Source: Escherichia phage JP4. From it: 64,000 nucleotides of DNA. Below the pieces are notes generated by a model. That model ran no database searches. It was not told the DNA's origin and worked only from the letters and a program-made list of their open reading frames with translations. Both the position numbers and the translations under genes were made by a program. Where the stretch lies: sequence record PQ330092, one strand, 5' to 3'. Shown in pieces: positions 55,770 through 56,429 of the stretch (positions within the stretch are counted from its first letter, which is position 1; the number at the start of each line of letters is the position of its first letter).

Positions 55770-56429
55770 ATGAAACTTAATCCACACAGCAAACAATACC
55801 TTAAGCACTTTAAATACCTCAACAGTATTCAAGCAGAATCTTTTACACCAGCATATACGTATCACCCAAATGTACTAAAGAAACGAAATAAAAAGAAAAA
55901 ATCCAGAAATGTTCTCGTATCTAAGAACCTCAAATCGTACTTGAAGAAAAATAATATAGCTCTTGCTTTTATTAATATCTATAATACTGATTTAAAAGTA
56001 TTGAGTACTAATACCAGCACAAAAGCACTAAAGAATGCATCTATCTATATACACATGGATAATATCCCGTGCACTATAATTCTATCTTTCGGGAATGTAT
56101 ACTTCTTCGGGAATTGTAATAGCACCCATGATATCAGTACTGCACAATTCCAAATCGGCGATATGTACTGCATGGGTTCAGAAAAAATACACGATAACAT
56201 GCACTTCTTCCAAAAGCAACGTACTAACGAAACTGATACAGTACTGCAATTCCTAAAAGAACTACAAAACAAAGAATTAACACCAGAAGAAGAATTCATG
56301 TACAGTACTGTAATCGATAATCCAGAACTCTATAAAAACGCGTACAATCTAACAAAACATGTACAGGAACTTATCAGTACTGATAAGAAATTTCATCACC
56401 TCATTACGTATATTTCAAACTATGTATAA
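55770..56429 (+). CDS. hypothetical 219-aa protein embedded in the small-protein array
   Basis: ATG 55770 after aagga SD preferred over track start 55740; Lys-rich N-terminus; no family-C motifs. Confidence 0.55.
   Translation: MKLNPHSKQYLKHFKYLNSIQAESFTPAYTYHPNVLKKRNKKKKSRNVLVSKNLKSYLKKNNIALAFINIYNTDLKVLSTNTSTKALKNASIYIHMDNIPCTIILSFGNVYFFGNCNSTHDISTAQFQIGDMYCMGSEKIHDNMHFFQKQRTNETDTVLQFLKELQNKELTPEEEFMYSTVIDNPELYKNAYNLTKHVQELISTDKKFHHLITYISNYV

Follow-up and report, generated by a model that had tools for sequence, protein, structure and literature searches.

A lineage-restricted 219-aa gene, probably an older resident of the small-gene array beside the terminal repeat of Escherichia phage JP4

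In the 64,000-nucleotide stretch of Escherichia phage JP4 analyzed here (record PQ330092; hereafter, the window), a larger open reading frame of 219 aa (positions 55770-56429, + strand) interrupts an array of small paralogous genes, as a preliminary description of this DNA had stated; 10 units stand before it and 11 after it. The explanation that we consider likely overall is that this ORF is a real gene of a family of its own, called here the B family, that it is an older resident of the locus and a member of the same operon as the small genes, and that its product is an accessory protein. The evolutionary and anatomical statements about the gene are those in which we place high confidence.

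As an uncharacterized gene, the feature is already known, since proteins 100% identical to its product (those of phages E9.1 and SHEFM2K) have been deposited as hypothetical proteins, a label under which the gene appears many times, and since a PHROG for it exists. A search of a literature library found no paper discussing either the 219-aa gene or the small-gene array. Three modest points are new here: (i) the polarity of events, with a resident B gene first and the small-gene array as a later, lineage-specific expansion, (ii) the joining of two PHROGs as one family that consistently borders an array of RCC1-like virion-protein genes, and (iii) a predicted fold without solved counterpart. The B gene serves as a constant reference point against which the evolution of the very plastic region beside the Asteriusvirus terminal repeat can be followed.

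The 219-aa gene and the B family

The gene (phrog_29152) extends on the + strand from an ATG at 55770 to a TAA at 56427-56429. An alternative in-frame TTG upstream, at 55740, would give a product of 229 aa. The ATG is to be preferred, since the ribosome-binding site AAGGA, read directly from the sequence (55759-55763, + strand), stands 6 nt ahead of it and every ortholog begins with MKLN. The first base of this AAGGA is also the last base of the TAA (55757-55759) that ends the small ORF before it. At the 3' end, the gene overlaps the small paralog that follows it by 8 nt, ATGTATAA (56422-56429, + strand), which contain the stop of the one and the start codon of the other; this overlap was correctly recorded in the preliminary description. 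The paralog starts with ATG 56422, and its sequence begins MYKEYYKDKIPM. The same stop/start junction is annotated in phages 121Q and E9.1, and such a layout is typical of translational coupling. The region has a G+C content of 31-40%, and the 219-aa gene shows no anomaly in this respect.

The product was also said to have a Lys-rich N-terminus. The run KKRNKKKKSR is indeed present, but it comprises residues 37-46 (codons at 55878-55907, + strand) and thus belongs to the N-terminal quarter of the protein, not to its extreme N-terminus. The wider segment of residues 34-62 has a pI of 11.4, with 12 K+R and zero D+E. The sequence of the Lys-rich segment varies across the family while its basic character is kept, and the segment is of low confidence (disordered) in the structural model. 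A match to Pre-PUA_NSUN2 (E 0.012, below its cutoff) falls on this stretch and was dismissed as compositional.

The homology search that had been proposed for the gene places it in its own family of ~220-aa proteins, phrog_29152 (E 2.7e-113; residues 1-219 align with positions 1-223 of the 223-position profile, a full-length match). Members of this family include 121Q gp256, phAPEC6 gp544c, E9.1 CDS0649, and A4_254; the proteins of E9.1 and SHEFM2K are 100% identical to the 219-aa protein and the others 71-96%, all at the equivalent genomic position. We see no difference between the 219-aa protein and this family, to which it belongs. Of the 35 phage records in which tblastn finds the gene, 31 are from Escherichia and 4 from Salmonella, and the orthologs fall into groups of 95-100%, 70-75%, and 34-35% identity, the last consisting of JNE01 and Turkey5. 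A megablast search with 53700-58600 retrieved 33 phage records, all from Escherichia/Salmonella Asteriusvirus jumbo phages (the 121Q/PBECO4 group), with vB_EcoM_E9.1 as the closest relative (99.7% full-length). A search of 5.8 billion proteins returned 23 clusters, all of this phage group, and an exhaustive HMMER scan of 1.84 billion representatives returned only 8 proteins, including the distant P0026, P0027, and P0028, with no B-family match outside this phage group. Single-protein scans of IMG/VR with P0026 and P0028 gave no relatives. Two alleles with ~72-75% protein identity are seen, a window type of 219 aa and a 121Q type of 223 aa (55545-56438 compared with 3776-4681 of L002), and their non-synonymous divergence is highest in residues 46-75 and 136-180.

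P0027 corresponds to EJP02_496 of phage EJP2. In EJP2, the left border of the RCC1-like array is occupied by three tandem paralogs of ~206-225 aa (EJP02_494-496), and the right border by a lone 230-aa homolog (EJP02_511). These border paralogs drew attention to a 220-aa ORF (38244-38906, + strand; phrog_34359) at the left border of the corresponding array in the window, which comprises 12 RCC1-like (beta-propeller) paralogs (39382-53652, - strand) and has the 219-aa gene at its opposite border. Pairwise BLAST between the 219-aa protein and the product of 38244-38906 is not significant; hhalign between the phrog_29152-type family and that of 38244-38906 gives a probability of 92% and an E of 9e-8 over the whole length. 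Bridging matches were obtained from the B1 HMM to P0036 (4.8e-7), from the B2 HMM to L009_c (1.5e-6), and from the B1 HMM to L009_c (1.4e-5).

The motifs of the family begin with an N-terminal helix, MK..(K/Q).Y...FK, after which come a basic linker, a variable central part that is rich in beta structure and carries (N/D)(I/T)PC, and a C-terminal helical module with E-E-x-F-(Q/M)-Y-S, where F176 is invariant in 30 sequences; the most conserved motif of the family, also in this module, is EEEFMYSTVIDNPELY. The phrog_34359 proteins resemble those of phrog_29152 in length, in layout, in the C-terminal L-T/S-x-E/D-x-x-F-Q-Y-S, and in their position at a border of the RCC1-like array, but they lack the QAES and IPC motifs, are found at the other border and outside any small-gene array, and form a separate PHROG. 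Judged by these profile and motif comparisons, the B family is lineage-restricted and consists of phrog_29152, the distantly related phrog_34359, and the paralogs of EJP2 and of the metagenome contigs L009 and L010. Its members stand at both borders of the RCC1-like array, and two of them are in the window.

Two side observations concern this neighborhood. The RCC1-like paralogs have a conserved N-terminus, MNKGG.MLPF.RM.KYGN. Seven ORFs of 104-141 aa, arranged in tandem immediately before the left-border B paralog (35750-38201), look by eye like small multi-pass membrane proteins; they have no mutual BLAST similarity, and EJP2 has a comparable run (EJP02_488-492).

AlphaFold2 run on 22 close orthologs gave an unusable model (pLDDT 37), and the addition of distant paralogs raised the values to a pLDDT of 78 and a pTM of 0.71. 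In the resulting model, a conserved helix (residues 5-14) precedes a disordered region (15-43, with the Lys-rich run), which is followed by a mixed alpha/beta domain (~45-150) and by four helices (153-218) that form an acidic C-terminal module. A Foldseek search of the PDB with the model gave no match (the best candidate had an E of 0.22 and a TM of about 0.2), and BFVD contained a single one, the viral protein A0A7L8G6Q1 (E 1e-4, TM 0.40, 21% identity). Searches of PDB sequences, Pfam, NCBIfam, and PADLOC with the 219-aa protein returned nothing above noise, and this includes the curated defence/anti-defence models of PADLOC, Pfam, and NCBIfam.

Relationship to the small genes of the array

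The array consists of ten upstream small paralogs of 59-75 aa (53737-55759, + strand), among which units 5-10 form a subfamily ending in ...LKLISI or ...ALASI, and of eleven downstream paralogs of 59-69 aa (56422-58528, + strand), mostly of the ...LLIYRY type (phrog_11711). The 21 small ORFs constitute one alignable family, are spaced by 1-15 nt or overlap, and are all recognized by a single profile (21/21, 31-77 bits). Members of this family turned up in 35 Asteriusvirus records (31 Escherichia, 4 Salmonella) and nowhere else, a tally that matches that of the B gene. A sigma-70-like promoter candidate, identified by consensus match only (TTGACA-17 nt-TACTAT; 53683-53711, + strand), ends 26 nt ahead of the first ATG of the array, in a divergent intergenic region of ~84 nt between the small genes and the RCC1-like array; in the promoter scan overall, sites were no more numerous than in shuffles. 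Given this compact operon, with its overlapping or closely spaced stops and starts, we infer that the 219-aa gene and the small genes would be transcribed together, in a single packed operon under a host-type promoter, and that its translation would be coupled to that of its neighbors.

The preliminary description had called the larger gene unrelated to the small paralogs and had named self-alignment as the means to detect a fusion of units. The claim holds at the sequence level, and the self-alignment, once run, revealed no fusion. A broad unit profile, built from 68 non-redundant units of five phages, scores 5.4 bits against the 219-aa ORF, which is noise (an unrelated ORF of the window scores 5.9 bits) when set against the at least 31 bits of the units, and a profile of the 21 window units scores 3.7 bits, over a C-terminal stretch. 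In hhalign, the units compared with the 219-aa family give P values of 0.17 (orthologs) and 0.12-0.58 (wider alignments), which are not significant. At the DNA level, 13 direct-repeat families were found in 53700-58600, several of which join units across the 219-aa gene, and none of them includes any base of 55770-56421. The hallmarks of the units, namely a length of 59-81 aa, an N-terminal (H)KE(F/Y)Y..L, and a C-terminal ..L(I/L)(Y/F)(R/K)Y or ..LKLISI, are absent from the ORF, and the N- and C-termini of its product (MKLNPHSKQYLKHFKYL and HLITYISNYV, respectively) are only loose look-alikes of unit ends. In view of the HMM, hhalign, and repeat-search results, the gene is unrelated to the units by every sequence criterion, and the idea that it is a fusion of array units was rejected.

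A more distant connection was also considered, in which the gene and the units are related, either because the units derive from its C-terminal four-helix module or because a unit was captured at its 3' end. The small-paralog family (phrog_11711 and relatives, 59-75 aa) shares with the gene its operon, strand, spacing, and coupled stop/start, and its products of ~60 residues are similar in length and in predicted helical content to the C-terminal part of the 219-aa protein. In addition, the best of the weak unit alignments run collinearly, from end to end, along residues ~155-218. In shuffle controls, which were chosen after these alignments had been looked at, the upstream unit subfamily, when compared with the profile of the B C-terminus, scores higher than 149 of 150 column shuffles (1/150 reach its score), but the other subfamily and the whole unit family remain at chance level (21/150 and 17/150). 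The unit at 55580-55759, the one just upstream of the gene, can be aligned with residues 162-219 of B (58 residues, with FMY.T in common), and its score is reached by just 4/2000 shuffles in a test against residues 150-219 that concerns a single pair picked by hand; the equivalent unit/B pair of JNE01 shows nothing (595/2000). The formal statistics described above are all non-significant, and no repeat is present in the DNA. The B protein is, moreover, 3.5 times longer than the units, contains an alpha/beta domain that they lack, and belongs to a family that occurs without units in EJP2, L009, and L010. The resemblance between the C-terminal helical module and one unit subfamily is therefore weak and inconsistent, a hint that makes a distant relationship conceivable, and we regard actual kinship of gene and units as unlikely.

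The same holds for the B gene as a literal founder, with the ~60-aa units produced by partial duplications of its C-terminal four-helix module, a scenario to which we give a low probability, although the B family does predate the units at the locus. If it were true, a lineage-specific family of two dozen mini-proteins would have arisen when a resident gene underwent fission, and would then have diversified around that gene.

As a separate observation, a segment of 246 nt, made up of one unit and the beginning of the following one, occurs once on each side of the 219-aa gene (54160-54405 and 57741-57986, 74% identity). Recombination between such flanking copies would delete the gene, yet 35/35 genomes keep it.

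Virion data and possible function

The products of this region can be compared with the virion proteome of phage phAPEC6, in which 62 proteins were identified by ESI-MS/MS (PMC7247149). Among them are 8 of the 11 RCC1-like orthologs; neighbors of the B ortholog on the list include gp549 and gp551 (PMC7247149). The ortholog of the 219-aa protein, gp544c, and the small units gp540c-548c are absent from the 62 virion proteins of this one data set, as is any protein from the position of the left-border B paralog (PMC7247149); such an absence is weak negative evidence.

Isolates from Salmonella are informative in another way. Three sister isolates among them, SD-15_S21, SD-2_S15, and SD-6_S16, have internal deletions of 99, 252, and 193 nt in the B gene, two of which are in frame (at 4001-4573 of L003, 2501-2914 of L012, and 2501-2979 of L011, respectively), while their small units are intact; the ortholog is truncated or internally deleted in SD-1, too. 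Since three different deletions have occurred in isolates, the protein is dispensable at least on Salmonella, and the pattern of loss in these genomes suggests that the gene is either dispensable or counter-selected on this host.

The 219-aa protein is thus probably a non-structural accessory protein. More specifically, but only as a tentative proposal, it may be a non-virion, non-essential factor that acts in the infected cell in a host-dependent manner. In such a role, the conserved N-terminal peptide and the basic tether would dock the novel globular domain onto a protein or nucleic-acid partner. The combination of a confidently predicted domain without solved counterpart and of repeated loss in Salmonella-grown isolates makes the gene a reasonable knockout target for studies of host range and host interaction.

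The main functional rival to this accessory role is that B proteins work with the RCC1-like virion proteins, for instance as non-virion folding or assembly factors or as packaged proteins of low abundance that the conserved N-terminal peptide would target. B genes are found next to the RCC1-like array, at one of its ends or at both, in the window, in EJP2, and in L009 despite the strong divergence of these lineages, the RCC1-like proteins are themselves virion-associated, and a conserved N-terminal peptide followed by a flexible linker is a layout that resembles a targeting signal. However, gp544c and the left-border position are both missing from the phAPEC6 virion proteome, the number of B copies (1-3) does not follow that of RCC1-like genes, and the B gene is grouped for transcription with the small units, whereas the RCC1-like genes are on the opposite strand. 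Large B-gene deletions are tolerated in the Salmonella isolates, and the linkage may simply reflect a common location in the plastic region beside the terminal repeat. An RCC1-linked function is accordingly judged to be decidedly improbable.

Order of events at the terminal-repeat locus

Position 58792 of the window matches the first base of the fEgEco12 and E9.1 records when these are aligned with it, and is the start of a direct terminal repeat of ~21 kb (58792-64000 in the window). The termini of fEgEco12 and its direct terminal repeat of 20,993 bp were mapped by PhageTerm and restriction digests (PMC13070987), and because of this experimental mapping we take 58792 as the physical end of the genome. 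The array operon is consequently the last unit of the unique sequence, ending 263 bp before the right repeat.

Some features of this terminal region were noted in passing. A hairpin, GGCAGAGGAAGTCTGCC, is located right at the genome end (58796-58812). A stretch of ~1.8 kb without long ORF (58600-60400) is 79-88% identical to EJP2 and JNE01 and matches 43 phage records, which include Salmonella and Erwinia phages beyond the 35 array-bearing ones; Rfam and tRNA searches of this stretch were empty, and it may serve as a terminus, in packaging, or in regulation, or may specify an RNA. Within the terminal repeat, an element of ~90 nt recurs before successive genes (60433-60520 and 60881-60984; in L007, at 8246, 9044, 9600, and 10425). 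It is intergenic, is conserved between the window and EJP2, and looks like a reiterated promoter or regulatory element.

The position of the B gene was checked in the window, 121Q, JNE01, Turkey5, SD-15, phAPEC6, EJP2, and L009, and, on the downstream side only, in L010, a contig that begins inside a B gene. It lies on the + strand, past the last RCC1-like gene and before the conserved non-coding region and the terminal repeat. In 121Q, SD-15_S21, phAPEC6, JNE01, and Turkey5, the gene is inside the small-gene array, with an MQ(Q/T)FY... unit 10 nt upstream and another unit overlapping its stop. The window has 10 upstream units, whereas 121Q has 7 and JNE01 and SD-15 have 6 each; the downstream copies vary too, and the alignment with 121Q contains whole-unit indels on both sides, including directly downstream of the 219-aa gene.

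The relatives that carry no array give the order of events its direction. In EJP2, a B gene directly follows the RCC1-like array and there are no units: homology to the window ends at 53712 and resumes at 58967, so that an interior of 5.2 kb corresponds to 1.3 kb. In the metagenome contig L009, four RCC1-like genes are followed by three tandem B paralogs, a gap, and a conserved downstream gene; in L010, this same downstream gene comes after two B paralogs and a gap. No small unit was found in any of the six frames of these two contigs. The conserved downstream protein of L009 and L010 is only 34-37% identical to that of the window, whereas those of the window, JNE01, and EJP2 are 82-91% identical to each other, which identifies the two contigs as true outgroups; the outgroup evidence consists of these two metagenome contigs, one of them short. 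The polarity given by EJP2 is less clean, because its flanks are 79-91% similar to those of the window and JNE01 but its B gene is only 24-31% identical; in this phage, a cassette replacement or a loss of the array is conceivable.

Since array-less relatives carry 1-3 B copies at the locus, the B gene is an older resident there and not an insertion. In the simplest history, the small-gene array would have expanded around one resident B gene in the 121Q/PBECO4/JNE01 lineage, with whole units gained and lost on both sides while the one B copy was kept. The comparison of related genomes that had been suggested at the outset thus finds the gene fixed, the units variable, and B present in array-less relatives. 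The preliminary description had offered two origins for the gene. Its idea of a founder left in place by recombination stands insofar as the gene is an older resident retained amid unit turnover; ancestry of the units, which the word founder implies, is a separate matter, to which we give the low probability stated above.

Its other idea, an insertion, did not survive the comparison. A recent insertion into a pre-existing array, by horizontal acquisition or as cargo of a mobile element, would account for a gene that interrupts an otherwise homogeneous array and whose nucleotide identity to 121Q (86%) is below that of its flanks (93-99%). However, the gene is found at one site, with constant neighboring units, in 35/35 array-bearing records, including the 35-39%-identical lineage of JNE01 and Turkey5, and the B family is present at the locus in the array-less EJP2, L009, and L010. 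The nuclease, transposase, and integrase domains and the flanking repeats expected of a mobile element are absent, no match was obtained outside the phage group among the 1.84 billion representatives, and the composition is unremarkable. The insertion reading is thus largely refuted already, and we consider it highly improbable.

Judged from its conservation, the 219-aa ORF is a genuine protein-coding gene: that it might be a chance open frame or a decaying pseudogene, as the truncated or internally deleted copies in SD-15, SD-2, SD-6, and SD-1 and the fairly relaxed dN/dS between the two common, close alleles (~0.4-0.47) could suggest, has a practically negligible probability in view of an ORF that about 30 genomes, at 35-100% identity, keep intact with 215-224 codons, a dN/dS below 1 in every comparison (0.27 against JNE01 and 0.14 between JNE01 and Turkey5, the cleanest ones), a ribosome-binding site and coupled stop/start, and a confident predicted fold.

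With the gene read as an older, retained member of the operon, two known systems can be compared with it. The internal head proteins of phage T4 have an N-terminal capsid-targeting sequence, and the T4-type cleavage motif is L/I-x-E. Like them, the 219-aa protein is basic and has a short conserved N-terminal peptide followed by a variable region; unlike them, it was not detected in virions (those of phAPEC6), its IQAE corresponds to I-x-x-E, with no L/I-x-E at the right place, and there is no similarity of sequence or fold. The idea of an internal head protein was dropped, as both virion detection and the cleavage motif are lacking.

Another parallel is with the tandem-duplication arrays and plastic regions of jumbo and T4-like phages. 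T4-like phages have "hyperplastic regions," and the locus described here similarly contains a variable cassette between conserved flanks, which are 79-88% identical to EJP2 and JNE01, with small hypothetical ORFs and a copy number that varies by whole units. A passage of the phAPEC6 paper cites Hua et al. on genome growth via tandem duplication (PMC7247149). The locus differs from such arrays in that a single, non-repeated gene remains constant in the middle of the array, and in that the family of this gene, B, is itself duplicated in other lineages.
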